This document shows positions 4,632 through 62,489 of a stretch of 64,000 bases of DNA, in pieces. Under the pieces are notes generated by a model. It ran no database searches and was not told the DNA's origin. It saw only the letters and a list, made by a program, of their open reading frames with translations. The first letter of the stretch is position 1. The number at the start of each line of letters is the position of its first letter. The stretch comes from Eledone cirrhosa (Eukaryota), in assembly GCA_964016885.1 (NCBI GenBank), contig OZ024741.1:213776001-213840000 (forward strand), written 5' to 3'. A program made the translations under genes and the position numbers.

Positions 4632-7600
4632 GGCGACCGTTGTGGTCAGTGTCCGATAATCGGACGTGTGTAATTACGGCTTACATGAAGGCAACATACC
4701 ATATATTGGAAAAAGTTGAGCTACATTACGCGGTAAGATTACATACAATAATTCTACATAAGTGTTTGAACTGTAAGTGTGTTGTAAAACACCTATTTAT
4801 ATGAACGATACATACACTTATGATATATGAACGATACATATACTTTAACATATAAATGCAACGTTGTTATATTACATTTATAAAGAAATATAAAAGTAAC
4901 GTTTTCGATTCAGAAACAAAAATATAAGTGTTTGAACTGTGAATGTTGTGAATATGTTGTAGAACACCTATTTATATGAATGATACATAAACTTTAACAT
5001 ATAAATACAGCGTTGTTATATTATATTACATTCGTAAAGGAATATACTAAGTAACGGTTCTTTTTGTTCTCGATTCAAACGATTCAAGAACAACGTTTAA
5101 AACACAGTTGTAGAATTAAAAACTAACTGAAAAGAAATATTACCCAAGCTGTGAATAACTTTAAATTTGATTCTGACAGAACTTTGTCGTAACTTTTAAA
5201 GAAGATCATCGACTATTTAAAAAAAATAAATACAAAATATTAGTGAATAGACGAACTCATCATGGCAAAAAGTACAAGTCTCCTTCGACCAAATCGCAAT
5301 TACAACCGTTGTATACAGTGGAGCTACGAGCTTAACAAAGAATTATATGAAGCATACAAACAATCTGAACCCCAAAAGTTCGGTTTTATGCAAAGGCTAA
5401 AAACTTTATGGAACTCCAAACACCCAGAATTAGACTTTTCTCCAAAGCATCTAAATGAACAGGCAAAACGTATCATTAGATGTAAATTGATACATCTAAC
5501 GGAATCGAGTGATACTACAAATACAGCCCTTGTAGACAACCACCCCACCTCCACTGACAGACAAAGAGAATGGCCAGCTAAATCTAACAGTGAACAGCTC
5601 ACCAACAATTTTGCTGAAATCCATCCCACTTCCACTGAAGGACAGCGAGAAAGGTCAGCTGACTCTAGTAGTAATTGTCACCACATCAACAACGAGGCTG
5701 CAATTCATGACTCTACTGAACAAACATAGCACCAAAAACTTGTGGGCACCCTACAAGTGATATGGAACGATATGTTTCAAGAGATACACAGCCTTAATGT
5801 GTGTGACAGACCATACAACACTAGAGACAGTAAAGAACCCACTAAATTGGAATTGGAAGCGGTGAACGAAATAGCTGGCAATTATCTGAAGGCTATACGA
5901 TCTAAAGGTGTAGAAACGACATTTGAAACGCTCAATGTTTTGTTATATGTTTCAGCTGTCACATTGCTATCATATAACACACATCTAAAACCACGCAATC
6001 AAGATACAAACAGAAAGCCTGAACCAGCGTGGATGCGAAATTTAAAAACCAAAATTTTGTCCCTGAGACGAAGTATCTCACACATCGCAGTCGTTATGAA
6101 ATGCAACATAGAGAGAAACTTCACACGACACCAGGAAGACCTAAAGAAAAAGTTAGAGAGACGATTTGGAGATACCAAATTTAAAACTTTGAACTCCAAA
6201 TTACACCAGTTGAAACAACAACTCACAGCTACAACAGAAAGACTAAAATATAAGTCAACAGCCCATAAACGACAAGTGCTAAATAGATTGTTTGCCAGAG
6301 ATCCTAAATCAGTTTATCGCAGCTTCGGTGGCAAAAGCTCAATCCCTGTAAACGACACCCCTTCAAAAGAACAGGTTGAGAACTACTGGAGATCTGTATG
6401 GGAAACGGATGACGGATTCAACAGACAAGCTAATTGGCTAAAACAACTGGAACAGGACTACTGCCAACATGTCCAGACAAAACAATATGACATAGATGGG
6501 TCAATACTGGAAACAGCTCTACAGAAAATGTCGAATAGGAAATCGCCAGGCCCAGACCTCATTACAGGATACTGGTTGAAGAATTTCACTTTCTATCGGC
6601 AAGATCTCATACGGCTGTTTACAGAAACCATTAAGGGCACACAAGAACTGCCCAGATGATTATCAACTGCCACTACTCTCCTCATTCCCAAAAATAGCCA
6701 AACCACCCTTGCTAAAAATTACCGCCCAATTGCCTGCCAAAACATCATGTATAAATTATATACTGGGTGCCTTAACCTGTTCTTACAGGATCACTGTGCT
6801 ACCAACAACATCATAAGACCTGAGCAAGCTGGTGGAAAGAGGGAGGTGTGGGGTTGCATAGATCACCTACTAACTAACAAAATGATTCAGGAAAAAACAA
6901 CAAAGAATCGCAGAAACATGACTGTCGTGTGGCTGGACTATCAAAAAGCATTTGATAGTGAACCTCATGGGTGGATTATTAAGGCTTTACAGTTAGCTAA
7001 AGTCCCACAACCATTAGTAGCTGCTGTTGAACGCCTGACCAAGAACTGGTACACCAATTTGATCCTTAGAGGTGAGAAGGAGCAGGTTAAGACTGATAGG
7101 ATACATTACCAGAAGGGCATCTTTCAGGGTGATAGCTTGTCAGTACTACTCTTCGTTCTCTCACTGAATCCACTATCTTACCTACTCAGGAAACAAGGTG
7201 GACAAAGAAGTGGGCCCAGAAGTATCTCCCATCTTTTCTTTGTTGATGACCTGAAGTTGTATGGGCCAAATATCAATGACATCAAGAAACAATTGGACCT
7301 CATTACACAATTTTCAACCGACATCAAAATGAAATTTGGTGAGTCCAAGTGTGCATATTTGGCAGTAAAACGTGGAAGAGCTGTGCCCTCCTCTAGAAAT
7401 CTAGATATGAACGGCCTGACAATACAACCTCTGCAGTCAGGTGACAACTACAGATATCTTGGACAGGATGAGAATGTCAGATATGATGGACCCATAAATA
7501 AGGAGAGAACCAGAACTGAATACCTCAGAAGAGTAAAAAAAATATGGTCATCAGAACTGTCAGCATACAACAAATACATTGCCCACAATACCTATGCTGT

Positions 7601-8852
7601 GCCAATTCTAACGCCAACATTTGGCCTACTGAACTGGTCATTGCAAGAACTAAGTGAGATGGATGTTAGAACTCGAAAACTTCTCAGTGTTACTGGGAAC
7701 TTTAACATCAATGGTGATGTGGATAGGCTATACTTCTCACGCAAGGAAGGTGGCCGGGGTCTAAAATCAATATTAACAACATATGAGACCCGGATAGTAA
7801 CACTGAAGCAACACCTTCAACAGAGGAAAAAGGTTGGCGACCATCTTGCTCAGGTTTATGAGCATGAAAAAAGAAATATCATTAGAATAGCGACTGATCT
7901 GGAGGAGAGATATGGAATAAAGCCTGATATAAATCTCTCACCCAGAGAAATCGGAAGATCCTATTCAATGTTCAAACAAGAAAAAAAAATTGACCAATTT
8001 ACAGAGAAAGTTGTGCATGGATACTTGAGGCGTAAAACACAGACCATAGAGGGGATAAACCACTCAAAAAGCCTGGCATGGAGTTCCGACAAGTTTATGA
8101 CATCACACCTTGAGGGATATCTCTATGCAATACAGGAACAAGAACTCCCTACCAAATATCTGCTGCACAAAAGAGGAGGGCCAGCAGCTGACAATAAATG
8201 TAGGCTATGTAAAACAAAGATCGAGGATGTAAGCCACATTGTTGCCAGCTGCGAAAGAATGTCATCTCGCTACTACCTCCCCATGAGACACGATGGGATA
8301 GCTAGAACTATCTGGAACGCACTTCGGAAAACAAAATTAACAACAAACGAGGAAGAATATATTGAGACAGATGGCACTAAGGAATACTGGTGGAACCTGA
8401 AAATAAAAACTGCCACCAAATTAAAGCACAACCGGCCTGATATTGTAGTTTGGGACCACACATTGAAAACGTGTTCTGTTGTGGAGATCAGCTGCCCACT
8501 TGATGTAAACGTTGTCAGAAAAATACAGGAGAAGGAGGACATCTACGGACCATTGATGAGGAACTTACAAATCCAGTATCCAAGATACACCTTTAGCTTC
8601 ATACCCATCATTATTGGTGCTACGGGTTATATACCAAACCGCTTGGACCAAAGTATGACCGAACTTGGATTTGCGGACAAAAAGCGCAGCTCCTTAATTC
8701 ATAGTCTACAAATGGCTGCGATAGCTGGCACCTTCAAAATATGCAAAACATTCTTGCGATTCAAGGGATGACAATTTCTTTTCTTTTACAACCTTGCCAC
8801 CAGGAAGGTGGCCGGTCAAAAAAATATACTCGAAATTAAGAGAAAGAGAAAA
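4631..8852 (+). mobile_element. R4/Dong-clade non-LTR retrotransposon (RLE type), near full length, flanked by (CATA)n
   Basis: Single long reading frame with RT, CCHC and RLE; (CATA)n at 4572-4630 and 8853-8872; A-rich 3' end. Confidence 0.85.
5262..8771 (+). pseudogene. R4/Dong ORF (Myb-like N-terminus, RT, CCHC, restriction-like endonuclease) with two in-frame stops
   Basis: ORFs 5262-5729, 5742-6659 and 6747-8771 share one frame; motifs KSPGPD, DYQKAFDS, GIFQGDSLS, FVDDLKLY, CRLC..EDVSHIVASC, RHD, NRPDIVV..VEISCP; TGA at 6657 falls where Trp is expected. Confidence 0.9.
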
Positions 8853-10518: not shown

Positions 10519-10714
10519 AACGAAGGAAATGTGGTAAGGAACCAGGGAGACCATAACGCACCAAAGTACTCAAAACTTAGGGTAGTAGAGTGGGTAATAG
10601 GAACGAGTAGGACCCCGACAGCTGAGCTCAAGCCGTTTCGACGGCTAATTCTGGACCCAGTCCAGAATTAGCCGTCGAAACGGTTTGAGCTCAGCCGTCG
10701 GGGTCCTACTCGTT

Positions 10715-10718
<4 letters not shown>
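10519..10718 (-). mobile_element. PLE family A fold-back remnant (hairpin plus tail) in (TA)n
   Basis: ~58-bp inverted arms matching the terminus of the 47161-48538 element, plus ~80-nt unpaired tail. Confidence 0.8.
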
Positions 10719-10764
<46 letters not shown>

Positions 10765-13431: not shown

Positions 13432-13432
<1 letters not shown>

Positions 13433-14300
13433 TTCGTTTCTGAATTTGTTATTAGCAACACATACCCTTTTCTGAATCTGTTATTAGCAAGACATACCCT
13501 TTTCAAAGACCCTCATGTATAGATAAGAAATGTATAACATGTAAAATAAGCCCCCATATTAACTGTAAAACTAGAAATGTAGTGTATAGCATAAGATGTA
13601 CTGAAGGACAATGTAGAGACAAAAATATAGTGTACATAGGTGAGACAGCTCGTAGTGTAGGGGAACGCATAAATGAACACTGGCGAGACCTTCAAGATAG
13701 TAAAGAATCATCTGTACTCTACCAACATGCTAAAATAGAACACAAGGGTAAATTAGAGAACATAGAAATAAAAATAGAATCTACACACAGAAAAGACGCA
13801 ATGTTTAGACAAATTACAGAGGCAATAAACATAAAATAATTACAACCAAAATTAAATAGAAAATATGAGTGGAACAGCAACATCACAACTTACAATTAAG
13901 GACAAAATGAAAACACATACACACATAGAACAAACAACCAACCAGTAACATGTAAATAAACAAATAAATAAATGAACATAAACGCACACAGACACCCGTA
14001 TGTGGCGCATGCGCAGACTGAGCACACAACACACACACAGAAACAAAATGGCGTAGGACAGAACAAAGGAGAGGCACAGAAACAAAGAAAGGAATCCCCA
14101 GTCACTGAAGAGGTCACAGAGTGTGTGACGAAAGAACTATGAATATGTATAAACAACTATATGGTTGTGGAACCAACCAACCAACCAGAAATTTATAAAT
14201 TTATAAATTTATTATAAATTTATTATAATAAATTGAAGTGAAAGCAACTGGTGCGTGTGTTTCTTATTGGCAACATGACCCTCCCAAAGTATAACAATAT
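13432..14300 (+). mobile_element. 5'-truncated Penelope-like element, family B (GIY-YIG remnant plus pLTR with HHR)
   Basis: NVVYSIRC..C..VYIGETARSVGERINEH..HAKIEH..RQITEAINIK; HHR at 14101-14143; 5' end is an inverted copy of the family tail (TTCGTTTCTGAATTTG); in (TA)n. Confidence 0.9.
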
Positions 14301-14690: not shown

Positions 14691-14882
14691 AACGGAGGAA
14701 ATGTGGTAAGGAACCAGGTGGACCATAACGCACCAAAGTACTCAATACTTAGGGTAGTAGAGTGGGTAATAGGAACGAGTATGACCCCAAGGGCAGAGCC
14801 CAAGCCGCTTCGACAGCTATTTCTGGACTGAAATAGCCGTCGAAACGGCTTGAGCTCTGCCGTCGGGGTCATACTTTTCCCT
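14691..14882 (-). mobile_element. PLE family A fold-back remnant
   Basis: Tail plus inverted arms, as at 10519. Confidence 0.8.
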
Positions 14883-15405: not shown

Positions 15406-15407
<2 letters not shown>

Positions 15408-15600
15408 AAAAAGTATGACCCCGACGGCAGACCTCAAGCCGTTTCGACGGCTATTTCTGGACGTCCAGAAATAGCCGTCGAAACGGCTTGAGCTCTGCCG
15501 TCGGGGTCATACTTTTTCCTATTCCCACTCTACTACCCTAAGTATTGAGTACTCTGGTGCGTAATGGTCCATCTGGTTCCTTACCACAATTCCTTTGTTT
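15406..15600 (+). mobile_element. PLE family A fold-back remnant
   Basis: Near-perfect palindrome centred on GGACGTCC (~15462) plus tail. Confidence 0.8.
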
Positions 15601-16731: not shown

Positions 16732-16768
16732 TTCCTTTTTTTTTTTTATATATATATATATATATATA

Positions 16769-19700
16769 TAAATTGAAACAAAATGAAAACGAAATTTCAT
16801 TTCTCACTCTTAGTATGGCACTTACTTAAATGTAAGTATGCATGTATACGTACATACATATATGTATACAGACGTACAGTAGCATGCACATATATATATA
16901 TATATACATATATACATACATATGCATACAGGTACACATACATATACATTGCCTTAACACCGTATGGCATAAATTCAGGCTGTTCAGTTTGTTTACAAAC
17001 GAACAAAGCGACGTTAGCGCCGCTAAACTGATACGTGCATATATGTATGTGTACCTGTATGCATATGTATGTATATATGTATATATATATATATATGTGC
17101 ATGCTACTGTACGTCTGTATACATATATGTATGTACGTATACATGCATACTTACATTTAAGTAAGTGCCATACTAAGAGTGAGAAATGAAATTTCGTTTT
17201 CATTTTGTTTCAATTTATCGTTTTCGGTATGCCTGACCGATTTAACTCACTCAATATGCAAATTAGGCTGCTCAGCCGTTAATTTTCATAAGGAAAGTAT
17301 ATACTTTCGAACGTTCAACTATCTGGCAGATGGGTAAACGGTGCTGATGATAGCTAACAAGCTTGAAACTAGTACATCGTTCCTGTGTCAGTGTTGAACA
17401 AAAAGGTGACGTGGTTGCCTTAACACCGTATGGCATAAATTCAGGCTGTTCAGTTTGTTTACAAACGAACAAAGCGACGTTAGCGCCGCTAAACTGATAC
17501 GTGCATATATGTATGTGTACCTGTATGCATATGTATGTATATATGTATATATATATATATATGTGCATGCTACTGTACGTCTGTATACATATATGTATGT
17601 ACGTATACATGCATACTTACATTTAAGTAAGTGCCATACTAAGAGTGAGAAATGAAATTTCGTTTTCATTTTGTTTCAATTTATCGTTTTCGGTATGCCT
17701 GACCGATTTAACTCACTCAATATGCAAATTAGGCTGCTCAGCCGTTAATTTTCATAAGGAAAGTATATACTTTCGAACGTTCAACTATCTGGCAGATGGG
17801 TAAACGGTGCTGATGATAGCTAACAAGCTTGAAACTAGTACATCGTTCCTGTGTCAGTGTTGAACAAAAAGGTGACGTGGTTGCCTTAACACCGTATGGC
17901 ATAAATTCAGGCTGTTCAGTTTGTTTACAAACGAACAAAGCGACGTTAGCGCCGCTAAACTGATACGTGCATATATGTATGTGTACCTGTATGCATATGT
18001 ATGTATATATGTATATATATATATATATGTGCATGCTACTGTACGTCTGTATACATATATGTATGTACGTATACATGCATACTTACATTTAAGTAAGTGC
18101 CATACTAAGAGTGAGAAATGAAATTTCGTTTTCATTTTGTTTCAATTTATCGTTTTCGGTATGCCTGACCGATTTAACTCACTCAATATGCAAATTAGGC
18201 TGCTCAGCCGTTAATTTTCATAAGGAAAGTATATACTTTCGAACGTTCAACTATCTGGCAGATGGGTAAACGGTGCTGATGATAGCTAACAAGCTTGAAA
18301 CTAGTACATCGTTCCTGTGTCAGTGTTGAACAAAAAGGTGACGTGGTTGCCTTAACACCGTATGGCATAAATTCAGGCTGTTCAGTTTGTTTACAAACGA
18401 ACAAAGCGACGTTAGCGCCGCTAAACTGATACGTGCATATATGTATGTGTACCTGTATGCATATGTATGTATATATGTATATATATATATATATGTGCAT
18501 GCTACTGTACGTCTGTATACATATATGTATGTACGTATACATGCATACTTACATTTAAGTAAGTGCCATACTAAGAGTGAGAAATGAAATTTCGTTTTCA
18601 TTTTGTTTCAATTTATCGTTTTCGGTATGCCTGACCGATTTAACTCACTCAATATGCAAATTAGGCTGCTCAGCCGTTAATTTTCATAAGGAAAGTATAT
18701 ACTTTCGAACGTTCAACTATCTGGCAGATGGGTAAACGGTGCTGATGATAGCTAACAAGCTTGAAACTAGTACATCGTTCCTGTGTCAGTGTTGAACAAA
18801 AAGGTGACGTGGTTGCCTTAACACCGTATGGCATAAATTCAGGCTGTTCAGTTTGTTTACAAACGAACAAAGCGACGTTAGCGCCGCTAAACTGATACGT
18901 GCATATATGTATGTGTACCTGTATGCATATGTATGTATATATGTATATATATATATATATGTGCATGCTACTGTACGTCTGTATACATATATGTATGTAC
19001 GTATACATGCATACTTACATTTAAGTAAGTGCCATACTAAGAGTGAGAAATGAAATTTCGTTTTCATTTTGTTTCAATTTATCGTTTTCGGTATGCCTGA
19101 CCGATTTAACTCACTCAATATGCAAATTAGGCTGCTCAGCCGTTAATTTTCATAAGGAAAGTATATACTTTCGAACGTTCAACTATCTGGCAGATGGGTA
19201 AACGGTGCTGATGATAGCTAACAAGCTTGAAACTAGTACATCGTTCCTGTGTCAGTGTTGAACAAAAAGGTGACGTGGTTGCCTTAACACCGTATGGCAT
19301 AAATTCAGGCTGTTCAGTTTGTTTACAAACGAACAAAGCGACGTTAGCGCCGCTAAACTGATACGTGCATATATGTATGTGTACCTGTATGCATATGTAT
19401 GTATATATGTATATATATATATATATGTGCATGCTACTGTACGTCTGTATACATATATGTATGTACGTATACATGCATACTTACATTTAAGTAAGTGCCA
19501 TACTAAGAGTGAGAAATGAAATTTCGTTTTCATTTTGTTTCAATTTATCGTTTTCGGTATGCCTGACCGATTTAACTCACTCAATATGCAAATTAGGCTG
19601 CTCAGCCGTTAATTTTCATAAGGAAAGTATATACTTTCGAACGTTCAACTATCTGGCAGATGGGTAAACGGTGCTGATGATAGCTAACAAGCTTGAAACT

Positions 19701-20411
19701 AGTACATCGTTCCTGTGTCAGTGTTGAACAAAAAGGTGACGTGGTTGCCTTAACACCGTATGGCATAAATTCAGGCTGTTCAGTTTGTTTACAAACGAAC
19801 AAAGCGACGTTAGCGCCGCTAAACTGATACGTGCATATATGTATGTGTACCTGTATGCATATGTATGTATATATGTATATATATATATATATGTGCATGC
19901 TACTGTACGTCTGTATACATATATGTATGTACGTATACATGCATACTTACATTTAAGTAAGTGCCATACTAAGAGTGAGAAATGAAATTTCGTTTTCATT
20001 TTGTTTCAATTTATCGTTTTCGGTATGCCTGACCGATTTAACTCACTCAATATGCAAATTAGGCTGCTCAGCCGTTAATTTTCATAAGGAAAGTATATAC
20101 TTTCGAACGTTCAACTATCTGGCAGATGGGTAAACGGTGCTGATGATAGCTAACAAGCTTGAAACTAGTACATCGTTCCTGTGTCAGTGTTGAACAAAAA
20201 GGTGACGTGGTTGCCTTAACACCGTATGGCATAAATTCAGGCTGTTCAGTTTGTTTACAAACGAACAAAGCGACGTTAGCGCCGCTAAACTGATACGTGC
20301 ATATATGTATGTGTACCTGTATGCATATGTATGTATATATGTATATATATATATATATGTGCATGCTACTGTACGTCTGTATACATATATGTATGTACGT
20401 ATACATGCATA

Positions 20412-20415
<4 letters not shown>
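16769..20415 (+). mobile_element. Hammerhead-containing 466-bp tandem array with inverted 5' arm (candidate non-LTR retrozyme)
   Basis: Units start at 16949, 17415, 17881, 18347, 18813, 19279, 19745 and 20211 (partial); 16769-16946 is the reverse complement of part of the unit; (TA)n on both sides; no real ORF. Confidence 0.85.
17337..17381 (+). ncRNA. Minimal type I hammerhead ribozyme (first of 7; others start 17803, 18269, 18735, 19201, 19667, 20133)
   Basis: Stem I AACGGUG/CAUCGUU; core CUGAUGA; stem II U-AGCU(AACA)AGCU-U; GAAA; palindromic stem III ACUAGU; predicted cleavage after GUA at 17374. Confidence 0.8.
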
Positions 20416-20456
<41 letters not shown>

Positions 20457-29635: not shown

Positions 29636-30146
29636 ATATTTATATTTATATATATATAAACGTTTGAATATGTATAATAAAGCCAAAACAATGCAGGTAT
29701 GGACATAGAAAAAAGAATGCAATTGCAAAAGATATTGTTGACAATTCGTCTTTTACCTTAGATTTATTTAAATGTCCTTAATTTTCAAGATATTATCTCT
29801 TCTTCAGAGGGAAATAAAGGTCTCAAACCAGCGTTCTAACTAGCTTGCCAAGCCATGCTGGCAGGAAATAGTATAGAGTATCTGTTCTATCTCTAATGTC
29901 AAAGAGTTAAAATTAGGTGGATAAAGAGTAGTCTCCCTTTAAAAGGGGTTTGTTTTGGGGTTTTTTTTCATATACATGCCTATACATGCCTGTTTAAGTG
30001 TGGGAGAATGCATGAAGGTGTAAGTATGTGAGTGTGTGTGTGTGAGTGTGAGAAGATAAGTCTATTCGTAAATGTGGGGGATAGGTGTTATCTGGTGTTA
30101 GAACTGGTTTTGTGTGTGTGTGTGAGAGAGAATAAGTGGAGGTGTA

Positions 30147-30184
<38 letters not shown>

Positions 30185-30395
30185 CGTGCGTGTGTGTGGG
30201 GGGGGGGGGGGTAAATATGGGGCTAGAAGCCCTATCAGGTTATAAATTGGGTGTTGAGTTCTAGTCTATTATTGATTGGTGGTTGTGTTTTATCTATAAT
30301 TAGTGCTTCCTTAATTCTAAGATTGCCGAGGTTTCTTTCCTTAGTTTCTATCCTAACTGTTATGGTTTTGTCGGTGTTTTTGCATTTAACTAGGT

Positions 30396-32486
30396 TCCAA
30401 CACCGAACCTAGCGGCGCCTCGACCAACAATACACCTGACGCAAAACACCTCGTCACAGACTTGACAGGATCCCTCTCCCGAGAGGAATTAGACCTCCTC
30501 AGCCTGGGTCCCAAGTTCATATTGAAACAGAGACTGGACGACAAATTATGGCTTGACATAGAAACGAATTTCTGTCGGGCTGCCTACCAACTAAAATGGA
30601 TATCGACTCTCGACAACAACACCACGGAATCTATCAAACCCAGATTCCCGATATACCAATTAGATCGCCCACTCTGTCCACCGCCTGCCAACCGCGAGCT
30701 TGAAGAAAAACTCTCGAGACTAAAACATTCCGTATTTAACATCTTACGGAAACAGAAGAAGATAGCCCCAAACCTCTCCAGGACACAACAACTCGCCCTG
30801 AAGAACCTACGGAATAGGGAACTTATATACTTACCATCCGACAAAGGTAAAGAGTTTTGCGTCATCTCTCAAGCCACATACAATAACCTAGCCTTTGAAC
30901 ACCTAAGCGACAATGAATTATACACAGAGATCCCCGACATGACTGCAGCCCAGATCGAAAAACAGACCAACTCCATCTGGTTCGATATCTGTTGGAGAAG
31001 ACAACTCCCAAATAAAGTTAAGCTCAACTACACCACTAGACATAGCAGACTGCCCACTTTCTACCACCTCATCAAGACCCACAAGAATAGTACTAAGACG
31101 CAAATAAGACCCATCGTCTCTAGCATAGAAGGACCCCTATACAAAATTTCCTGGCTCCTCTCCCAGGTCCTCAAGTCACTACTCTCCACCTTTCCCGGGC
31201 ATGTCAGTAGCTCCGACGAAGTTATACGTAGACTACACCAACTCAAGCCAGAACAACTTAAACTAAATAAATACGCTTTTAGCCTCGACGTTGTCTCCCT
31301 CTACACTACAGTCCCCGCTCATCCAGCTGTCGATTTATTGACGGACTGCGTGGTCGCAGAGGACATCCACTGCTACGGCCTCCACCCGACGGACATACAC
31401 CAGCTTTTGTCCTTCACAGTAGACAACACGTACTTCACCTTCCACCACCACACATACAGACAGACAACAGGATTACCCATGGGATCCAGCCTATCGGGCC
31501 TGCTGGCCATCACCTACATGTACCAGCTAGAATGCCGAGTTCTCAACACCTGCCATTCCCATGCCTTCTTCACCCGATATTTAGATGACATACTCATCCT
31601 TACATCATCCCGTGAGGAGGCAGATAAAATATACACAACATTCTCCAGCATGGACGCCAGTATAAAGTTCAGCATGGAACACCCCGATGACCGCGGATCC
31701 CTATCCCTACTGGACTTCCAGCTCAGGGTAACAGAGGAAGGCAACATCCACACCTGCTTCTATAAAAAAGCCGCCAGCAGGGACCTGTTCGTACATTTCA
31801 GATCGGCCCTCCCACTCGGTGCCAAGTTCGGATACATAAGGAACGAACTGGCACGTATCCGGAACAAATGCACCGACGCTAGAGACCGAGACACACACAC
31901 CACACATTTCCTGGAAGTACTCAAACTGAACGGATAAACGACATCCACCACAAATCGTGCCAGAAAGAACAGAGGACACCACACCCAAGACACTAACACT
32001 TGCTTCCTGAAGCTCCCACACTTCAGTGAAGAAACAACAACAGCCATCCGCAGAGCCATCAGACGAGAGGGACTAGATATCCAACTGGCCTACTCAGGTC
32101 CTTCTCTACGCGGACAGCTAACCAAAAGACACTCCACCAGACATGACAACTGCTGCAGACTAGCCAACTGCCTCATCAACGACACAGACCTATGCCACCA
32201 GGCTTACGTCGTATACAGACTAGAGAGTGACAAATGCAACAACTTCTACGTAGGTAGCACCACCAGACCAGTCCACATAAGAATAAAAGAACACCTCAAT
32301 ACTAACGCTTCCTCATTTAAGAAACACCTAGTTAAATGCAAAAACAACGACAAAACCATAACAGTTAGGATAGAAACTAAGGAAAGAAACCTCGGCAATC
32401 TTAGAATTAAGGAAGCACTAATTATAGATAAAACACAACCACCATTCAATAATAGACTAGAACTCAACACCCAATTTATAACCTGA
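30396..32486 (+). pseudogene. PLE RT plus GIY-YIG ORF, 5'-truncated, one premature TAA (31935-31937)
   Basis: PLE RT motifs LSLGPKF, SDKG, KTHK..IRPIVS, SLDVVSLYT, GLPMGSSLS, RYLDD; the same frame continues LKLPHF..C..C..C..VVYRL..FYVGSTTR..RIKEH..EALII to TGA at 32484-32486. Confidence 0.92.
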
Positions 32487-32792
32487 AAGGGCTTCTAGCC
32501 CCAAATTTACACCCCCCCCCACACACACACACGCTTACACCTCCACTTATTCTCTCTCACACATACACACACAAAACCAGTTCTAACACCAGATAACACC
32601 TATCCCCCACATTTACGAATAGACTTATCTTCTCACACTCACACACTCACACACACACTCACATACTTACACCTTCATGCATTCTCCCTAATTTTAACTC
32701 TTTGACATGAGAGATAGAACAGATACTCTATACTATTTCCTGCCAGCATGGCTTGGCAAGCTAGTTAGAACGCTGGTTTGAGACCTTTATTT

Positions 32793-32829
32793 CCCTCTGA
32801 AGAAGAGATATTATCTTGAAAATTAAGGA
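32793..32829 (+). ncRNA. Minimal HHR-like motif in family C pLTR (mirror copy ~29774-29812 minus)
   Basis: CCU-CUGAAGA-AG-AGAU(AUU)AUCU-U-GAAA-AU-UA-AGG; only 3-bp stem I. Confidence 0.5.
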
Positions 32830-33009
32830 CATTTAAATAAATCTAAGGTAAAAGACGAATTGTCAACAATATCTTTTGCAATTGCATTCTTTTTTCTATG
32901 TCCATACCTGCATTGTTTTGGCTTTATTATACATATTCAAACGTTTATACCTCATTACACAATGCTTCAAGTGAACTATAACCTCCATATATATATATAT
33001 ATATATATA

Positions 33010-33130
33010 TGAATAAAGTTAGTCCTTCATCAGTGATCTTCCAGATGGTTGGAAGATCACTGATGAAGGACTAACTTTATTCATATGTAACCCATTAGCA
33101 ACCACGCAGCACGTTTATTCTCATATTTAC
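33010..33130 (+). mobile_element. Fold-back remnant family D (second copy ~11015-11100)
   Basis: GAATAAAGTTAGTCCTTCATCAGTGATCTTCC and its reverse complement plus tail; in (TA)n. Confidence 0.6.
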
Positions 33131-38132: not shown

Positions 38133-41100
38133 CTACAGGATGGTATACAGAGAAGGCCCATTTACACGAGCCATTCTCGCCACTATCACCCACCTTTCAT
38201 AAAACTGCCTGTGGCCAAGCACCTCTCTCTCCATTCTTATCCTTCTTCCGAAGTGATATCGGAAGAAGTAGACCAGACTATGGCCAGAGAGGAAGTTGCC
38301 TGACCTCAGACCTTTCAATCGTGTCCACCAAACAACCTCTTTCAACATGGCTATTACGCACAGAAAAACCGCCTTTGCTTCCTTTGTGAAGAGGGGAGGC
38401 GGTTTGATTGTCATCACGGACTCGGCTGTCAATTTAATCGGCGCCACCCGCGACAGCAGTTGTTCGGCGTAGCCCCACAGATCAGCCACGCCCGGACATT
38501 GCACCAATGCGTGCGCCACGGTTTCTTCGTGACGCACGCATCTAGGGCAAATCTTTTTTGAGGGATCCCTGCCCGGGCGCCCGTGTCTGTAGAGCCTCTC
38601 TCGAACGGGTAGAGCCCCTCGGTAGCACTGCCAGGCCAGTGACTTCTGGAAGTTGTCCATTGGTCCTGGGCCGAAAGTCCTACCGAACAGGCTGGCCAGT
38701 TCGTCTTCTTCCATGTCCAGCGACTCTCCAAGGGTGTCATCGCCCCTGCTAGCCACCAGCCCTCTATAGAATGATGAGGTGGATTCTCCACCGATGGCCC
38801 GGCCCTCTTGCCAGAGAGCCCTGAGCGCCTGAGCACACTCAGTGTGCCAGTCTCCCAGTTTTCCGGATCTTTGCTTGACCCAGGACTGTAGCTCGGTGAG
38901 TGAGACGAGTCTCGGAAAGGCTCGTTTCACGAACGGAGCCCACACCGGTTGACCAGTGAGGAATACCTGTAGGTGCCGTAGCCTTAATGCGTGCCTACGC
39001 ATCATCAACCACGGCATCCCCAGCCCTCCTTTCGAAGGTTGTTGGCAGCAGATGGATCTTCTCACCATAGGAGGACGCTTCTTCCAAAGAAATTGGAAGA
39101 GCATGCGTTCCATGGTGGTGAGTGTTTCCTTAGGGCAAGGCACGACAGTCAGGCGGTAGTAAGTGACGGACGCTATGTAAATGTTCGCCACCTCCGCCCG
39201 GCCTTTTAGGGACAGCTTACACTTGGCCCATTTCTGGGTTAGTGCAAACACCTTGTTCGTAACCTCGTTCCAGTTCTTTTCCACCTGGAGGTCCGGTCCA
39301 AACCAGACCCCAAGCAACTTTACCGGGCCCTCCGTCCAGTGTCCGACGACACCATCGGGAGGCATCGGTCTGCCTCTCCACGTTCCGAGTTGCAGCCCGA
39401 TGGATTTTTCCCGGTTCAGTTTCGCTCCTGACAACCTTTCGTACTCCTCCAGTAAGGTACCGATCGCCTCGATCTCCGAGTCGGTTGATACCATTACTGT
39501 TACGTCATCGGCGTAGGCCGACACCGCTTTGCTCAATCCTGGTTCCAGGGGGATACCCTGCAACAACTCCAACTTCCTCAGTAAAGGCTCGAGAGTCAAT
39601 ACGTACAGAAGGGAGGAGAGAGGGCACCCCTGTCGAATGGATCGTGTGATTTCGAACGGCTTCGAAAGGTAGCCGTTCACCTTGATCCTAGAACAGATGT
39701 GGTTGCTATGTAGGGCAGTGATCCAGCCTCTGAAAACAGGACCGAACCCAGCCGCCGCTAGCACCGCATCCAGGTAACCATGGTCGACCCTATCGAAGGC
39801 CTTAGACTGATCCAAGTTGATCAGGGCCCCACCGAAGCCGGGTTTGTTGCCAACCCTCTCTATGATGTATCGCATGAGGTGGAGGTTATCATGAATGGAC
39901 CTGGATGGGATAGCACATGTCTGCGCATCTCCCACCAGGCCACCCACGACAAGCGCCAACCTCTTTGCTAACACCTTGGCCAAAATCTTTAACTCTGTGT
40001 TTAGCAGGGTTATGGGCCGAAAATTATTTATACTATCCCCCTTGTTCTCGTCCTTCCTCACCAGCGTGACTACGCCCTTGGCTACAGAACAAGGAATTCT
40101 CCCGTTCTGCTGCCAATTGCAGTAGACCGCTTCGAGGAGTTCGGAGAAGAAGACCGGCATTGCTAAATAAAGTTCGTAAGGTATACCATCGAGACCTGGA
40201 GATTTGCGTCTGCTGCATTGGCTCAGCGCATCTCCGATCTCATCAGCCGAGATTGGTCCCTCGCAGGACTCCGCCTCTTTGTTCGAGAGACGCGGCAGGC
40301 CGTCGAGGTATGGACCGAAATTCACGCCCCGGCCCGGACCCTCGCCTCCCCCGAACAATCGGGCAAAGTGCTTTTGAAAGGCCTCGCACATCTGCTTAGG
40401 CTCCCGGATCACTCGTCCATCTTCGTCTTGCAACGACCGGATGGTGGATCGATTTCCACTTTTAGCTTCTGTCACGCGGGCCCATCCAACGGCTTTGGCC
40501 CCCTCATTACCTAGAGCACGTATTTTACTTCGAATGACGCAGCCTTCATGCTTTGCATCGAAAAACTGGTTCAAGGCCGTCCTCGATGCCAGCACTCTGG
40601 CCACATCTTCGCTCTTGATTGCCTCTTCTAATTTACCTGTTAATTCTTTCTCGTTTCTATTCCTATTGGCAGCTAACATCTTGCTATAGCTTATTGATTC
40701 TGTTCTAATCTCTCTTTTGAGAGATGCCCACCATCGGTTGTTGACGATTGCACCCGTCAACCTCTCCTTAACTAATCTGCTAATCCGGTTTCTGTAAGTC
40801 TCTTTTGCCGGTAAAGACAAATTAAGTTTCCAGTAACCGGGACCCTGTCTATGTGTTTTCTCGAGATTGACCACGCAGGTCACTAATTTGTGATCCGTGT
40901 AGCCAACCGTGCGCATTTCTGGACAGCTTAATATGTCCCTATCCTTACTTCTAACTAAGAATCTATCTAAGTACGATCTAGATTGACCACTGTGGTTTCT
41001 CCAAGTCCAGGTAGGCACAGTTGTAAAATCTAGTCGATATCTATCGACCAAGTTAAAACGGTCGAGTAACCCCTTGAGGCTGTTACACCCCCCTCTATTA

Positions 41101-41570
41101 GGACATGCTCCTGCATAGTCCCAACGTGCATCTAGGATGTCATTCCAATCCCCCGCTAGAAGCAGGGAACGCGACGTTCCCAGAAAAGTCTCCAAACGCT
41201 GGAAGAAGTCGGGCCGTTCAGCTCCGAAAGGGGAGTAGACGGCGACCAGTCTCAAGGCCGCACTTTCACTACTGCCAACGTCTAGCACCAACAAACGACC
41301 CTCCGGGTCCGAGTGCACAACCTGTACGGCAAGACCCAGGTGTTTTTGCAGCAGCACGACAACCCCACCCCCACCTCCAGGTTGACAGAGAGATGCATGC
41401 ACCTCAAAGTCATCGAAGGTGGGGGCCAGCTGCCGCATGACGCTGATTCGAGTCTCACAGATAACCATTACATTTATACTACATGACCTGAGGTCATTTA
41501 GAAGCTTTGCTTGCTTCCAAGTTGAGCCCAGGCCACGTGCATTCAAACATCCTACTCTTAACACATCCAT
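38133..41570 (-). CDS. Tx1-type ORF2: APE endonuclease, RT, C-terminal zinc knuckle (1145 aa)
   Basis: LNARGL, ICETR, GDWN, SYLDRF, TDHK, GPGYWKLN, KSPGLDG, FRPITLLN, LDQSKAFDRVDH, RQGCPLS, YADD, CPRC..ETVAHALVQC. Confidence 0.95.
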   Translation of the reverse strand: MDVLRVGCLNARGLGSTWKQAKLLNDLRSCSINVMVICETRISVMRQLAPTFDDFEVHASLCQPGGGGGVVVLLQKHLGLAVQVVHSDPEGRLLVLDVGSSESAALRLVAVYSPFGAERPDFFQRLETFLGTSRSLLLAGDWNDILDARWDYAGACPNRGGCNSLKGLLDRFNLVDRYRLDFTTVPTWTWRNHSGQSRSYLDRFLVRSKDRDILSCPEMRTVGYTDHKLVTCVVNLEKTHRQGPGYWKLNLSLPAKETYRNRISRLVKERLTGAIVNNRWWASLKREIRTESISYSKMLAANRNRNEKELTGKLEEAIKSEDVARVLASRTALNQFFDAKHEGCVIRSKIRALGNEGAKAVGWARVTEAKSGNRSTIRSLQDEDGRVIREPKQMCEAFQKHFARLFGGGEGPGRGVNFGPYLDGLPRLSNKEAESCEGPISADEIGDALSQCSRRKSPGLDGIPYELYLAMPVFFSELLEAVYCNWQQNGRIPCSVAKGVVTLVRKDENKGDSINNFRPITLLNTELKILAKVLAKRLALVVGGLVGDAQTCAIPSRSIHDNLHLMRYIIERVGNKPGFGGALINLDQSKAFDRVDHGYLDAVLAAAGFGPVFRGWITALHSNHICSRIKVNGYLSKPFEITRSIRQGCPLSSLLYVLTLEPLLRKLELLQGIPLEPGLSKAVSAYADDVTVMVSTDSEIEAIGTLLEEYERLSGAKLNREKSIGLQLGTWRGRPMPPDGVVGHWTEGPVKLLGVWFGPDLQVEKNWNEVTNKVFALTQKWAKCKLSLKGRAEVANIYIASVTYYRLTVVPCPKETLTTMERMLFQFLWKKRPPMVRRSICCQQPSKGGLGMPWLMMRRHALRLRHLQVFLTGQPVWAPFVKRAFPRLVSLTELQSWVKQRSGKLGDWHTECAQALRALWQEGRAIGGESTSSFYRGLVASRGDDTLGESLDMEEDELASLFGRTFGPGPMDNFQKSLAWQCYRGALPVRERLYRHGRPGRDPSKKICPRCVRHEETVAHALVQCPGVADLWGYAEQLLSRVAPIKLTAESVMTIKPPPLFTKEAKAVFLCVIAMLKEVVWWTRLKGLRSGNFLSGHSLVYFFRYHFGRRIRMEREVLGHRQFYERWVIVARMARVNGPSLYTIL

Positions 41571-41603
41571 GTGGGCGGCAGAGCCAAAGGAGAGTGTAGA
41601 GAC

Positions 41604-43292
41604 CTACCTTTCCGCTTCCCGGGGTTCGGGTTGCACGACTTCCATGGGGTCGGGGGTGTTGGGTGAAGGGGTGTCTTGTGGTGGTGTGGGGTCGTCGGTG
41701 TGTGGTGGGGTTGGGGTGTTTGGAGTTGTGTTGGGGAGGGGAAGGGGAGGGGGAAAGCTTTTTAGTAGGACGCGGTTTATGGGTTTGACAGAGGGTGGTC
41801 CTACGTCCTCCTTAAAATCCTTTTTTAGTTTTTGGTAGAGGTTCATTGGGATTTTTATTAGTTTTAAATGTGGGTGGTTTTCTGATGAAACAAAGTTTAC
41901 ACCTTCGGTTTGTACCGAAGGATTATTGTATATGAGTTCATTTAATTTATTATTATTTCTGTTGATGTAAGTATAGTGTAATGTCTTTTTTTCCGATGGT
42001 GTGAGTGTTTCGAAGAGGGGAGGGGCAGGTTTGGTTTTGTTTGTTGCTGGAGGGGTGTTTTCTGTTTTGTTAGATTGTGTTGCGATTTGGGTGGGGGTTG
42101 TTTGTCCTTGTGTGTTTTGCACATGTTTTCTTTTTTTCCTTTTAATCTGTCTGAAGGACTCCGTTTCTTCCTCCGAATTCGTTGGGTTATCTTCAGTGTT
42201 GGAGGGAAGAGGTATGTTTGCTGGTAATGTTTCCGTGTTGGTTTTCTTTGTGGGGGAGATGGATGTCACTATGTTAGACTGTGTTGTGTGTTGTGTCTGC
42301 GGTGGTTGTGTTGTTTTATTGAGTGAGAGGTTGGGTGGGCCTGTATTTTGTTTTGGGGTAATGTGTTGTGACTGTTTGTGTTGTGGTGGTGTTGTGGTGT
42401 TACTGAGGGACGGGTTGGGTGGGACTGAGTTTTGTTGTTTGTTTATCTGTTGTGGTGGTGGTGGTGGAGCTGGTGTTGGTAGCAGGGTTTTCTTTTTGTT
42501 GAGTTGGGGACAAGCGGCCTTCAGGTGCCCTCTGCCTGCACAGATATGGCAGGACGGCCTTCTCCCCTCCACGCTAATGTTTATATACCCGTGGTCCTCT
42601 AATAGGATTCTGTCGGGTATTTGGGCGATGCGTTCAGGCTTCATTTGTACTACCAGCTCTATACCTGTTCCACTGAACGCATTGCCTGTGGTTTTCCCAA
42701 TGGAAATCACGTTGTCATTCACTGGATCGATGAAGCCAGCTATGAGCCAGCAGTAGTCCACATCTGGCATCATTGCATCCAGCCATATGCGTTGAGTTTT
42801 TTTCCCCATATAAGATGGATAAAAGGTGAAATTTTTCGAACGAATCGGTGACAAAGCACATTTTTTTGCCGCCGATTCGTTCTTCATGATAATTGCTAGG
42901 CTTCCATACAGTCTGTCTTTTCTTATGAAAGTTGTTTCATTCAGTACTTCTGCGAGTACTGTTTTGATATCTGCTTGAGAAGGCTGTTCAGGTTTTTTTG
43001 TACTGTTGTTGATGGTCCGAAACTTGACCGTTCGGCTTTCAATGTCTTTCGTGAATTCTTGAGGCATTTTTACCAATAAAATACCATTCTCACCTTCACT
43101 TATGTATTGTTTTGCGTCCGTGATCCTTCGTACCACATCTGAAATGTTTTCCGCTATATAAGTCAAAGATTTCTTTGTTTTCTGTGCAAAAGAAATCTTG
43201 TCGTCTGCTTTGTTTTCTGATATTATGTTATTTTCAACTGTTATTTTTTTGTTTGTTGTGTCTTTGTTTGTGTTATTAGTATTGTCATGCAA
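41604..43292 (-). CDS. Tx1-type ORF1 with CCHC zinc knuckle and P/T/Q-rich C-half (562 aa)
   Basis: SFAQ motif, VEGRRPSCHICAGRGHLKAACP, basic QIKRKKRK; ends 33 nt upstream of ORF2. Confidence 0.88.
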   Translation of the reverse strand: MHDNTNNTNKDTTNKKITVENNIISENKADDKISFAQKTKKSLTYIAENISDVVRRITDAKQYISEGENGILLVKMPQEFTKDIESRTVKFRTINNSTKKPEQPSQADIKTVLAEVLNETTFIRKDRLYGSLAIIMKNESAAKKCALSPIRSKNFTFYPSYMGKKTQRIWLDAMMPDVDYCWLIAGFIDPVNDNVISIGKTTGNAFSGTGIELVVQMKPERIAQIPDRILLEDHGYINISVEGRRPSCHICAGRGHLKAACPQLNKKKTLLPTPAPPPPPQQINKQQNSVPPNPSLSNTTTPPQHKQSQHITPKQNTGPPNLSLNKTTQPPQTQHTTQSNIVTSISPTKKTNTETLPANIPLPSNTEDNPTNSEEETESFRQIKRKKRKHVQNTQGQTTPTQIATQSNKTENTPPATNKTKPAPPLFETLTPSEKKTLHYTYINRNNNKLNELIYNNPSVQTEGVNFVSSENHPHLKLIKIPMNLYQKLKKDFKEDVGPPSVKPINRVLLKSFPPPLPLPNTTPNTPTPPHTDDPTPPQDTPSPNTPDPMEVVQPEPREAER

Positions 43293-43724
43293 TTTTTCAA
43301 ATTTTTTTTTTTCGTTGTTTTCGTCATTTAATTTTTTTTCCTTTCGCAGATTCGTCCGTTTTTATTTTCATTTTTCCTTCCTTCTCTATGACGTTAGTTG
43401 GGAAGGAAGGGAGGACTAAAGCGTGCGAGCTTACAACTCTTACCGCTGTCCCCCCACCACTATTTTCGTTCGCTGCGTTTAACATTTCTGTTAGACGATT
43501 GAAATTTTTTACACAAAATTTTTTAAAACAGGTTTTCACCTCTAGGAGGGGTAAAGATGAGCTGACCCACCGCCTGACAGTTCAGACGGAGGGTCAAGTT
43601 ACACAATTGTATCAAAATTAAGTTTGAACTCACAAAATTTCCTCAATAAATTTGAACAAAACTTCTGTGCGAAGTGAATGACATCCACACTGTAGAACAG
43701 ACGACAGCTAGATTAAGAGTGTGT

Positions 43725-47160: not shown

Positions 47161-47162
<2 letters not shown>

Positions 47163-48538
47163 AAAATGATCAACCCCGACGGCAGAGCTCAAGCCGTTTC
47201 GACGGCTATTTCTGGACTAAATTAGAATTTTTAGTGTGGTAATAAATAGCCGAACTGTTCAAGGGGTAATTTCTTATATGGGAAGATTGTAGTTGTCAAA
47301 AGGATTGGTCAAAATTTCTTGTAAACACAATTAAATCTTTCATGGCGGTGGGGGAAGGTGGGGGTGGCTGAACTTGTCTGTAGAACAATGAGGGGGTGGG
47401 TGGAGCATGTCAAGCGTTGAAAGTGAATTCTATACAGCAAATTCTAAGGAGCGTGTATGAAATTAGGCTAGTTAGAAAGCAGTCGAAAAAGTATTCTGAA
47501 GGAATCTGAGAGTGGGAAGTTATAAAATTAAAAGTTTATTAAATTGGTATTAAAAAAATAGATGAAATTAATAAAAAAATTAAGTAGTAAAAATTAATTA
47601 AAAAAATCTAGAGTCTAAAGCAGCTGCTATATTTTTAGCTGATATTGCGTTTTTGGTCGATGCTATATAGAATTTACTAGGGTACTGAGGCTACAAAAGC
47701 CCGATGGTCGGCCTCAGGGTAGGCGAAAGAGGAAAAAGGACAAGGAAGAAGAGAGAGAGTGGAAGGAAGTGAGAAGAAGAGATAAAGGGAAAAAAGAAAA
47801 GAAGTGCATCTACCTATGTAAGCTGGGGTTTCCCCTATCTTGTTCGGCAAGTGGGGAAAAGAAGGATGTTGCAGCCATTGTCTACCCACCGGGGTCATGA
47901 GGGGGTTTGAGGGCGAGGTAAGTCCTACGCAACCGGTGTTTACATGCAGTTACAAGTTCGTCTTTTTTGTTTAGGAGTTGGTCGTTCGTAAACAGTATTT
48001 GTATTGTTTCCTCCGAGCATAAGTTACACGGACGGCGTCCTCCCGTGTAGGAGTTAGCCCTGGACAGTAAGCTCCAAGTAAGATTGTATGTTTGTAAGAT
48101 TGTAAGTAAGATTGGAGGTCCCAGATGTGGCCCGAAAGTGTAGTGGCATGTCACCGGGCCGGGTTTCTAAACGTATGTCGGTGTTGGTAGAGACGGGTCT
48201 TAAAGTCACAAGCGGTTAATCCTATATAGCCTATACAGGCAAGTTCAGCCACCCCCACCTTCTACCCAACGCCATGAAAAATTTAATTGAGTTTACAAGA
48301 AATGTTGATCAATCCTTTTGACAACTACAATCTTCCCATATAAGAAATTCCCCCTTGAAAAGTTCGGCTATTTATTACCACGCTAAAAATTCTAATTTAG
48401 TCCAGAAATAGCCGTCGAAACGGCTTGAGCTCTTCCGTCGGAGTTGAACATTTTCCTATTACCCACTCTAGTACCCTAAGTATTAAGTACTCTGGTGCGG
48501 TATGATCCATCTGGTTCCTTACCACACTTCCTTCGTTA
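47161..48538 (-). mobile_element. 5'-truncated Neptune-like PLE (family A source) with inverted arm and tail
   Basis: Minus-strand YIGLTACDFKTRLYQHRHTF and WSLLSRANSYTGGRRPCNLCSEE..LLNKKDELVTACKH; 48232-48457 inverted relative to 47161-47382; ~80-nt tail. Confidence 0.9.
48350..48444 (+). ncRNA. Variant HHR of family A (mirror copy 47173-47267 minus)
   Basis: CCCC-UUGAAAA-G..CGGCUAUUU/AAAUAGCCG..C-GAAA-CGGC(UUGAGCUCU)GCCG-UC-GGGG, as consensus of the two arms. Confidence 0.65.
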
Positions 48539-58400: not shown

Positions 58401-58558
58401 GCCATGCAGGTCACTAGTTTGTGATCTGAATAGGCAACCATGAACATTTGTGGACAGCTTAACATGTCCCTATCCTTATTTCTAACTAGAACCCTATCTA
58501 GGTACGATCTAGATGTTCCGCTACGATTACTCCACGTCCACAGTGGCGCAGTCGGAAA

Positions 58559-58559
<1 letters not shown>
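55428..58559 (-). mobile_element. 5'-truncated Tx1-type LINE with open ORF2 remainder (55664-58465, 933 aa)
   Basis: RT motifs incl. YADD and zinc knuckle; truncated within APE; GATA arrays on both sides. Confidence 0.95.
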
Positions 58560-58600
<41 letters not shown>

Positions 58601-58699
58601 TGATAGATAGATAGATAGATTGATAGATGGATAGAAGAATAAGTAGATAGATAGATTGAAGGACAGACAGACCGATAGATAGGCAGATAGATAGATACA

Positions 58700-58925
58700 T
58701 ATATTGGTTTCTTATATAGGCACAAGGCCAGAAATTTGGGGGGAGGGGAAAATCGATTAAATCGACCCCAGTCCAGTGCATTACTGGTACTTTATTTTAT
58801 CGACCTCGTAAGGATGAAAGGCAAAGTTAACCTCGGCTGGATTTGAACTCAGATCATAAAGGGCCGTAACTCTATGCTTCAAAGCATGGTGTCCGACCCT
58901 CTACGGATACTGCCAATCCACCGCC
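58700..58925 (-). mobile_element. Nin-domain SINE
   Basis: GGTACTTTATTTTATCGACC..GGATGAAAGGC..GGATTTGAACTC..TGCCAATCCACCGCC. Confidence 0.85.
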
Positions 58926-58985
58926 CTGAGATAGATAGATTCATATATTGAAAGACAGACAGTCACAGGCAGATAGATAGATATG

Positions 58986-61900: not shown

Positions 61901-62440
61901 GATTCCTGTAGGCTCTACTTGCCGGCAAGGACAAGTTGAGCTTCCAGTAACCGGGGCCCTGTCTATGAGTTCTGTCAAGGTTGACCATGCAGGTCACTAA
62001 TTTGTGGTCTGAATAGCCAACCATGCGCATTTTTGGACAACTTAAAAAGTCCTTATCCTTAATTCTAACTAAGAACCTATCTAGGTACGACCTAGATGAT
62101 CCGCTACGATTTGCCCAAGTCCAGGTTGGCGCAGTCGGAAAATCTAGTCGATATCTATCGGCCAGGTCAAATCGACCGATTAACCCTTTGAGGCTATTAC
62201 ACCCCTCTCTATCGGGGCAGGCCCCTACGTAGTCCCAGCGTGCATCTAGGATACCATTCCAGTCCCCCACTAATAGCAAGGAGCGGGACGTCCCTAGAAA
62301 AGTCTCCAGACGATGGAAGAAGTCCGGCCGCATTGACCCGAAAGGGCCGTAGGCGGCTACCAACCTAAACGCTCCGCCTTTACCACTGCCAAGGTCCAGA
62401 ACCACTAGTCGACCCTCCGGGTCCAAATGTACCATCTGTG
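58986..62440 (-). mobile_element. 5'-truncated Tx1-type LINE, ORF2 with several frameshifts
   Basis: ORF pieces 61353-62516, 61286-61573, 60935-61273, 60177-60929 and 59248-60495 align consecutively to ORF2; GATA flanks. Confidence 0.95.
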
Positions 62441-62443
62441 TTG

Positions 62444-62489
<46 letters not shown>

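Follow-up and report, generated by a model that had tools for sequence, protein, structure and literature searches.

We found that an array of 466-nt units in Eledone cirrhosa, which by sequence is a hammerhead retrozyme, probably represents one very recent insertion, both arms of which would have been written by a PLE RT/GIY-YIG protein from two fixed sites of one RNA, most plausibly a circular one. The array lies in a stretch of 64,000 nt (contig OZ024741.1, positions 213,776,001 to 213,840,000 of the forward strand; hereafter the window).

The array repeats with a period of 466 nt over positions 16949-20415 (3,467 nt, 7.44 copies) without a mismatch, and its seven full units (7/7) are identical, TA-run lengths included. 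The original prediction, made from the letters alone, had described an inverted copy of ~180 bp opening the array, an arm reaching ~65 nt past the array stop at 20415, (TA)n at both ends and identical units, and each of these features was recovered on measurement (Table 1). The array halts at unit position 205 and the inverted arm goes 65 nt further. The internal TA/CA microsatellite of the unit differs in length among loci and has itself been hit by later PLE insertions.

Table 1. Positions of the features discussed, numbered along the window.
Feature	Position	Strand	Description
Direct array	16949..20415	+	7.44 identical non-coding 466-nt units, 36% G+C; stops at the proximal fixed end (E205)
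Short inverted arm	16768..16946	-	179 nt, 100% identical to unit 92-270; terminates at the distal fixed end (E270)
65-nt tail (unit 206-270)	16768..16832	-	Stretch separating the two fixed ends
Head-to-head arm junction	16947..16948	.	2 extra bases
Left (TA)n target remnant	16748..16767	.	Preceded by T12; from sequence
Right (TA)n target remnant	20416..20453	.	(TA)19; from sequence
Internal TA/CA microsatellite of unit	17040..17150	+	~unit 92-200
Type I hammerhead motif, unit 1	17338..17380	+	Predicted cut after 17374
Two-armed coding PLE	29655..32987	+	RT + GIY-YIG, one stop between; hammerhead motif; 263-nt arms, 38-nt tail
Truncated two-armed Hydra-type PLE copy	47161..48538	-	226-nt arms, ~78-nt tail
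Truncated Neptune/Nematis-type PLE copy	13432..14296	+	Very young family, ~59-nt tail

We detected a type I hammerhead core at unit positions 390-432 in all seven full units (7/7), with a predicted cut after unit position 426; after the first, the motifs of the window start at 17804, 18270, 18736, 19202, 19668 and 20134. The original prediction had recognised the repeat but did not mention this motif. Stem I has 6 bp, stem II has 4 bp over a U.U mismatch, and stem III has a single bp and a palindromic loop, being unfavourable in the monomer and self-complementary as a duplex. Read from its sequence, the motif has the architecture given for canonical metazoan hammerheads, which are active as dimers in multimers and kept inactive in monomeric circles (PMC4209133), and the retrozyme hammerheads are predicted to work as dimers via the palindromic stem III. 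Stem II has no G-C pair at its base, where one is usual, and this, like the low Rfam score, counts against the scheme proposed below. No Rfam match in the window reached the gathering threshold; the unit motif scored 18.5 bits against HH9 (E 0.17), far under the gathering score of 52, and the miRNA-like Rfam matches in the window were rejected as TA microsatellite. Core variation was examined in 463 copies from the fetched loci (a few of these loci overlap), including 47 without the 30-mer of the family search. Of these 47 copies, 17 have a change at the free core position N7; no other core position is changed in more than 5, and a single pair of stem I was altered on both sides in 5 copies.

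The longest ATG frame on the hammerhead strand of the unit has 48 aa and an RT + GIY-YIG frame is absent, so the unit is not an autonomous PLE. Its length of 466 nt, its non-coding sequence, its 36% G+C, its tandem arrangement and its many genomic copies are marks of non-LTR retrozymes, and by these sequence-testable marks we would assign it to that class. Published metazoan non-LTR retrozymes are likewise short non-coding tandems with G+C <45%, one type I hammerhead per unit, thousands of copies and PLEs in the same genome (PMC7229834; bioRxiv 10.64898/2026.07.22.740005). The present motif resembles the axolotl HHR_Amex1 in its stem III and HHR_Amex2 in the U.U at the stem II base. The Eledone unit is longer than the mussel and axolotl units, and we found no PLE-end homology in it among the PLE loci sampled. 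Words of the unit were listed in runs X1-X6 (labelled as four organisms), and the unit was covered only in X2 and X5.

We counted the family genome-wide by exact patterns. The hammerhead 30-mer gave 10,692 exact matches in the 3.0-Gb genome (control, 0), and for the youngest subfamily we counted 947 short and 1,065 long ends besides 4,766 copies that read through (0 in the reversed-pattern controls). The first locus set, comprising all 54 clusters among the first 100 hammerhead matches listed, contains arms that face outward and stop at unit 205-210 or 268-270. The same array stop and the same tail end had been expected at other loci, and the 947 young short ends indeed lie at unit 205-210 and the 1,065 young long ends at unit 268-270. 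By a hand count of the first 100 short ends, positions 205, 207 and 209-210 occur about 19, 52 and 27 times, in addition to 2 variants. Nearly all typed ends run into (TA)n, and a target-site duplication is not definable.

The two kinds of end are paired. On C1 (0-278 Mb), 58 of 85 short ends have a back-to-back long end within 20 kb (1.2 expected; convergent, 0), and the arrays of these paired loci span 0.3-14.3 units, in line with the variable unit number that had been foreseen. In an unselected set made up of the window and 53 other loci (L115 standing in for L084, a shorter version of it), we identified 35 two-armed pairs and 27 single arms, the latter counting against a two-armed model. 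Both ends could be typed in 22 of the 35 pairs, and all of these (22/22) combine one short and one long end; one end is untyped in the other 13. The single arms adjoin (TA)n, unique DNA or other elements, and among 58 further loci picked for a seemingly unpaired end, many have a partner arm with a variant end. An older subfamily, ~79-90% identical to the window unit (L053, L067, L072, L109, L146, L167, L176 and L260), has the same two ends and an N7 change in the hammerhead core.

An inverted 5'-truncated arm, a one-sided tail between two fixed ends and a (TA)n target are marks of PLE insertions, and we hold with high confidence that these loci are PLE-type insertions of a retrozyme. EN+ PLEs (Poseidon, Anolis; PMC11167929, PMC8557442, PMC3846280) share the inverted 5'-truncated arm, the one-sided tail, the (TA)n target, the two fixed ends and a hammerhead upstream of the ends. 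The retrozyme differs from them, as described in these sources, by having no reading frame and by arms that can both be multi-unit arrays; its tail measures 60-65 nt against 30-40 in EN+ PLEs and 38, ~59 and ~78 in the coding PLEs of this genome. In vitro, the two strands of AT-rich DNA are both cut and extended by a PLE protein, which uses two internal RNA start sites that bound the genomic tail and is predicted to form a dimer (PMC11167929). Two such internal start sites would account for the fixed ends of the retrozyme, and by analogy with that protein we read the 65-nt tail of the window locus as the interval between two RT start sites.

The sequence of events that we propose is as follows. 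The array would be transcribed and its hammerheads, predicted to be active as dimers, would excise monomers that are ligated to circles, as in published retrozymes. A PLE protein, perhaps a dimer, would nick both (TA)n strands, and reverse transcription would start at unit 205-210 on one strand and at 268-270 on the other, the enzyme being suggested by PMC11167929. Synthesis of each cDNA would proceed back along the unit over a distance that varies from case to case and reaches ~15 rounds, leaving no scar at the hammerhead cut site, and the two 5'-truncated cDNAs would be joined head to head via short microhomology or short inserts. At the window locus, the 205-primed cDNA would have run for 7.44 rounds and the 270-primed cDNA for 179 nt.

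As to the template, the variants fixed within loci are informative. In a set of 33 young multi-unit loci we found 16 haplotypes that every unit of the locus shares, 11 of the 16 being private to one locus, which calls for a bottleneck of one unit followed by amplification. Hammerhead excision and ligation to circles, described for coral, mussel and axolotl (PMC7229834), would supply this one-unit bottleneck and a route to a circular template; rolling RT was already proposed for retrozymes in that paper. On the other side, 8/9 Xenopus retrozyme dimers failed to cleave in vitro (bioRxiv 2026.07.22.740005). We consider it somewhat probable, by analogy with published retrozymes, that a covalent circle is the usual template.

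A less likely template, for the same two-site PLE priming, is a linear uncut multimer transcribed from a source array, or a series of linear monomers joined by precise jumps, the hammerhead being a passenger. In L115 one pattern of three units recurs in both arms, an indication of a multimeric template at this locus; L116 has a variant in 6/9 units, L034 has a two-unit period, and L127 and L215 have shared variants; at such mosaic loci, multimeric templates or later duplication must also occur. PLE extension in vitro proceeds without hammerhead cleavage, and unprocessed RNA is the main substrate (PMC11167929). A PLE family in which no hammerhead was found also makes long tandems (see below), and the positions of the 5' ends fit a linear template equally well: they are spread across the unit and lie within 8 nt of the cut site in 2 of 78 cases (~2.8 expected), i.e. 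without a pile-up, some values at segment borders being approximate. With a linear template, however, a daughter array cannot exceed its source in length, so that every one of the 16 fixed haplotypes, whose arrays reach 11-14 units, would require a source array homogenised on its own. Jumps between monomers would also have to leave the predicted cut site free of indel scars, as the spacing over it is exact in 407/409 copies. Template jumps of R2 leave scars. We regard a linear template as unlikely and favour the circle as the more probable usual one.

Regarding the two arms, we found that the short-end arm is the longer one in 18/38 pairs and that both arms exceed two units in 11/38. In 4 of the 6 loci where both arms are shorter than about one unit (L036, L050, L067 and L082), 18-223 nt of each arm are missing from the opposite one, so neither arm was copied from the other. 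Most arm junctions show either an overlap of 1-3 nt or a short insert. The two arms of a locus nevertheless agree at four subfamily markers (50/50, 44/45, 60/60 and 34/34 loci, against 0.36-0.66 if independent), as arms from one source would. Two independent primings, one per arm, thus appear quite likely. It is very unlikely that a single priming made the array, the inverted arm arising by fold-back or self-priming and the second end being set by endonuclease resolution, as in the self-priming on an antisense template proposed for the inverted arms of rotifer Penelope (PMC3846280). The window arm is a subset of the array, as a single priming would give, and the junctions of L037, L057 and L131 are palindromic, both arms starting at the same position. 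A single priming would also explain, with no extra assumption, the concordance of the arms at the subfamily markers, which is partly due to one subfamily dominating at a time. Against it stand the mutually non-nested arms of the four short loci, the long arms that can carry either end type and the head-to-head chimeras with a different family described below.

We then compared units within and between loci. In the unselected set, the divergence was 0.0159 within an arm (86 pairs), 0.0180 across arms (27 pairs) and 0.0352 between loci (4,258 pairs), the higher within-locus identity that the original prediction had called for. The variants of a locus are typically present in all units of both arms, both in the first locus set and in 20 long young loci that were hand-picked from end and read-through matches and hence are no random sample. 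Among 39 loci with at least three units, 212 SNPs were singletons and 18 were partly shared; the latter are confined to 6 loci, the old locus L053 contributing 10 and L067, which consists of two insertions, 3. A second count by another method, from which the 16 fixed haplotypes also come, gave 108 singleton and 12 partly shared SNPs in 36 loci; it omits the TA run and units with an altered anchor, and hence misses the L115 mosaic. Variants common to subsets of neighbouring units, as in a satellite, are thus the exception.

These data bear on the highly improbable scenario in which only one unit or a short PLE end arrived at first and was later expanded into an array on site, like a satellite, through unequal crossing-over or slippage, a local growth of the kind given in bioRxiv 2026.07.22.740005. 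Periodic or adjacent shared variants at the 6/39 loci (one being the two separate insertions) and the two-unit period of L034 would fit such growth. The excess of singletons speaks against it, as do units that are as similar across the inversion as within one arm, the long arrays already present in the youngest, mutation-free loci and the frequency with which both arms are multi-unit. With variants partly shared at few loci and the arms alike, unequal crossing-over would have acted only exceptionally (L034, L116, L127 and L215). We are confident that the array was made at insertion and did not grow later by unequal crossing-over. The original prediction, that a PLE insertion had copied the unit ~7.4 times in one recent event and not by unequal crossing-over, is therefore supported at the family level; its single step holds for the writing of the array at insertion and has been refined to two primings, one per arm. 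An assembly artefact, through consensus collapse or over-expansion, could be suspected from the 7/7 identical units but is extremely improbable, since the same assembly separates single-base and TA-length unit differences at most other loci and collapse cannot create fixed paired ends; such divergent units, like the fixed ends and inverted arms, were resolved at the other loci.

The same insertion design had been claimed for the coding PLEs of the window at 13432, 29656 and 47161, and all three do show it. We identified arms in the copies at 29655 and 47161; self-BLAST recovered no arm in the 13432 copy, whose first ~30 nt are the reverse complement of the tail end of its family, and all three copies are broken or truncated. 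The 13432 family (L155-L193) has undergone a very recent burst, and at least 88 copies among the matches listed are 100% identical over 109 aa; it has its own two fixed ends ~59 nt apart, with a start codon just before the short end. The 47161 copy has no frame of 120 aa, and its family has many open frames of 784-786 aa elsewhere. A 786-aa frame, inspected by eye, contains an RWK-like motif, DKT, a CxCX5C linker, no CCHH, and a C-terminal CxxC and CxH; compared with the motif set in section 11 of PMC8557442, these motifs would place the family in the Hydra clade. No Pfam match was found for this frame.

At C1:91472500-91492499 (L288/L289) we found five head-to-tail Hydra-type PLE copies, 3.54 kb apart, with open frames of 784-786 aa; their in-register pairs show 2-3 differences over 2.3 kb, and the tandem ends at the long fixed end. 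A pattern scan of the 1.3 kb between the L288/L289 frames found no canonical hammerhead, although a variant motif could escape such a scan, and hammerheads are said to occur throughout the Hydra clade (PMC8557442). A tandem of 5 x 3.54 kb in which no canonical hammerhead was found implies that PLE tandems need no hammerhead circle.

Very short two-armed insertions of the 47161 family are also present in the window (14691-14880, 15406-15600 and ~10520-10720). In such insertions, with 73 matches in 40/222 fetched loci, both arms stop at an internal palindrome ~50-75 nt from the short end. At 33004-33089, a near-perfect palindrome of 86 nt lies between TA runs and has a hammerhead-like core start on both strands; it is probably a two-armed PLE insertion of minimal size, and L069 and L250 are flanked by similar pieces. 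The 3' regions of the coding PLE family of L150, L151 and L154 have a variant hammerhead-like core followed by a palindromic hexamer, a stem III design as in the retrozyme. Finally, the window contains several LINE copies with long open frames (5247-8771, 38133-43361 and 55664-62534), by eye one RT/restriction-like endonuclease type, several APE-RT and one with an upstream frame of 585 aa.

We searched for a coding PLE linked to the retrozyme. The sampled loci comprised 30 GIY-YIG, 20 long-frame, 30 + 9 of the 13432 family and 11 of the 47161 family. The autonomous PLE sharing the tail, for which the original prediction had proposed a search, did not appear, and neither these 100 loci nor the window PLEs yielded a coding PLE related to the retrozyme by sequence, a thin sample of a genome with tens of thousands of candidates. 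Only separate retrozyme insertions were found nearby in the sampled loci, and local alignment of 15 PLE 3' regions with the retrozyme gave z-scores <1. The 13432 and L150 families have tails with a short likeness to that of the retrozyme, which we attribute to chance.

At eight loci a retrozyme arm stands head to head with an arm of the 47161 family without a TA run. L038, L061 and L213 came from the locus sets, and gapped patterns gave L252, L253, L257, L260 and L262; the patterns recovered two of the first three loci as well, and three loci that are not chimeric. Seven of the 8 chimeras pair a short with a long end, as mixed twin priming would give (binomial p 0.035, Fisher p 0.11). At L226 the retrozyme is joined to the 47161 family in direct orientation, and retrozyme arms also join other PLE families and unique DNA directly. 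At L248, L044, L081, L231, L237, L247 and L059, no TA run separates the retrozyme arm from the arm or frame of another PLE family to which it is joined, several families being involved; these junctions may reflect mixed priming or target deletion. The chimeras were rejected as proof of a driver, as a one-armed insertion followed by target deletion would give the same junctions. From these rare chimeras, the Hydra-type PLE family (47161) is weakly suggested as a candidate source of the enzyme, and the 13432 family is a second candidate driver, with no link found in the sampled loci.

Tentatively, and with more doubt than confidence, the arrays could be seen as records of double rolling-circle RT. 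A dimeric Hydra-type (47161) PLE would load two RNAs, prime each at its own fixed site from the two target strands and join the products head to head; the RNAs would normally be sister circles paired via the palindromic stem, and rarely a circle and a PLE mRNA.

Twin priming is known from L1, in which two target-strand primers give an inversion joined by microhomology, one primer sitting at the poly(A) end and the other at a variable internal site. In the retrozyme, by contrast, the two sites, both internal, are fixed, and the arms have sequence in common. Multicopy non-autonomous PLEs are known in Chlamydomonas (PMC8557442); Chlamys elements such as MRC1 resemble the autonomous family at the 3' end, and most Chlamys are without hammerheads, according to the same source. 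PLEs have already been published as likely movers of retrozymes (PMC7229834), and bioRxiv 10.64898/2026.07.22.740005 adds retrozyme-PLE co-occurrence and pLTR homology. In the accessible text of these two papers, the tie to PLEs rests on co-occurrence and pLTR homology and insertion ends are undescribed, whereas the Eledone ends carry a PLE signature; the 2026 preprint has arrays formed by local amplification, whereas the Eledone arrays appear to be born whole. Our literature searches, which covered papers outside subscription, found no account of retrozyme insertion ends or of PLE twin priming, and the supplements of the 2026 preprint and of PMC7229834 (Figure S9 model) may bear on novelty.

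The class, its circles and its link to PLEs are thus known, and the evidence at the level of insertions appears to be the new part. The literature names as open the enzyme that moves animal retrozymes, the origin of their arrays and the formation of the inverted arms and tails of PLEs. In E. cirrhosa, the ends of about a thousand nearly mutation-free insertions name a PLE mechanism, the unit variants argue for arrays written at insertion, and arms that are not nested speak for two primings. With a 466-nt RNA, exact predictions of where synthesis starts and where the RNA is cut, and candidate proteins with open frames, all in one genome, the steps become testable in vitro, and the same analysis of ends is applicable to any retrozyme family. 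If true, double rolling-circle RT would explain the inverted pLTR and the tail of PLEs and the full-length birth of hammerhead 'satellites'.
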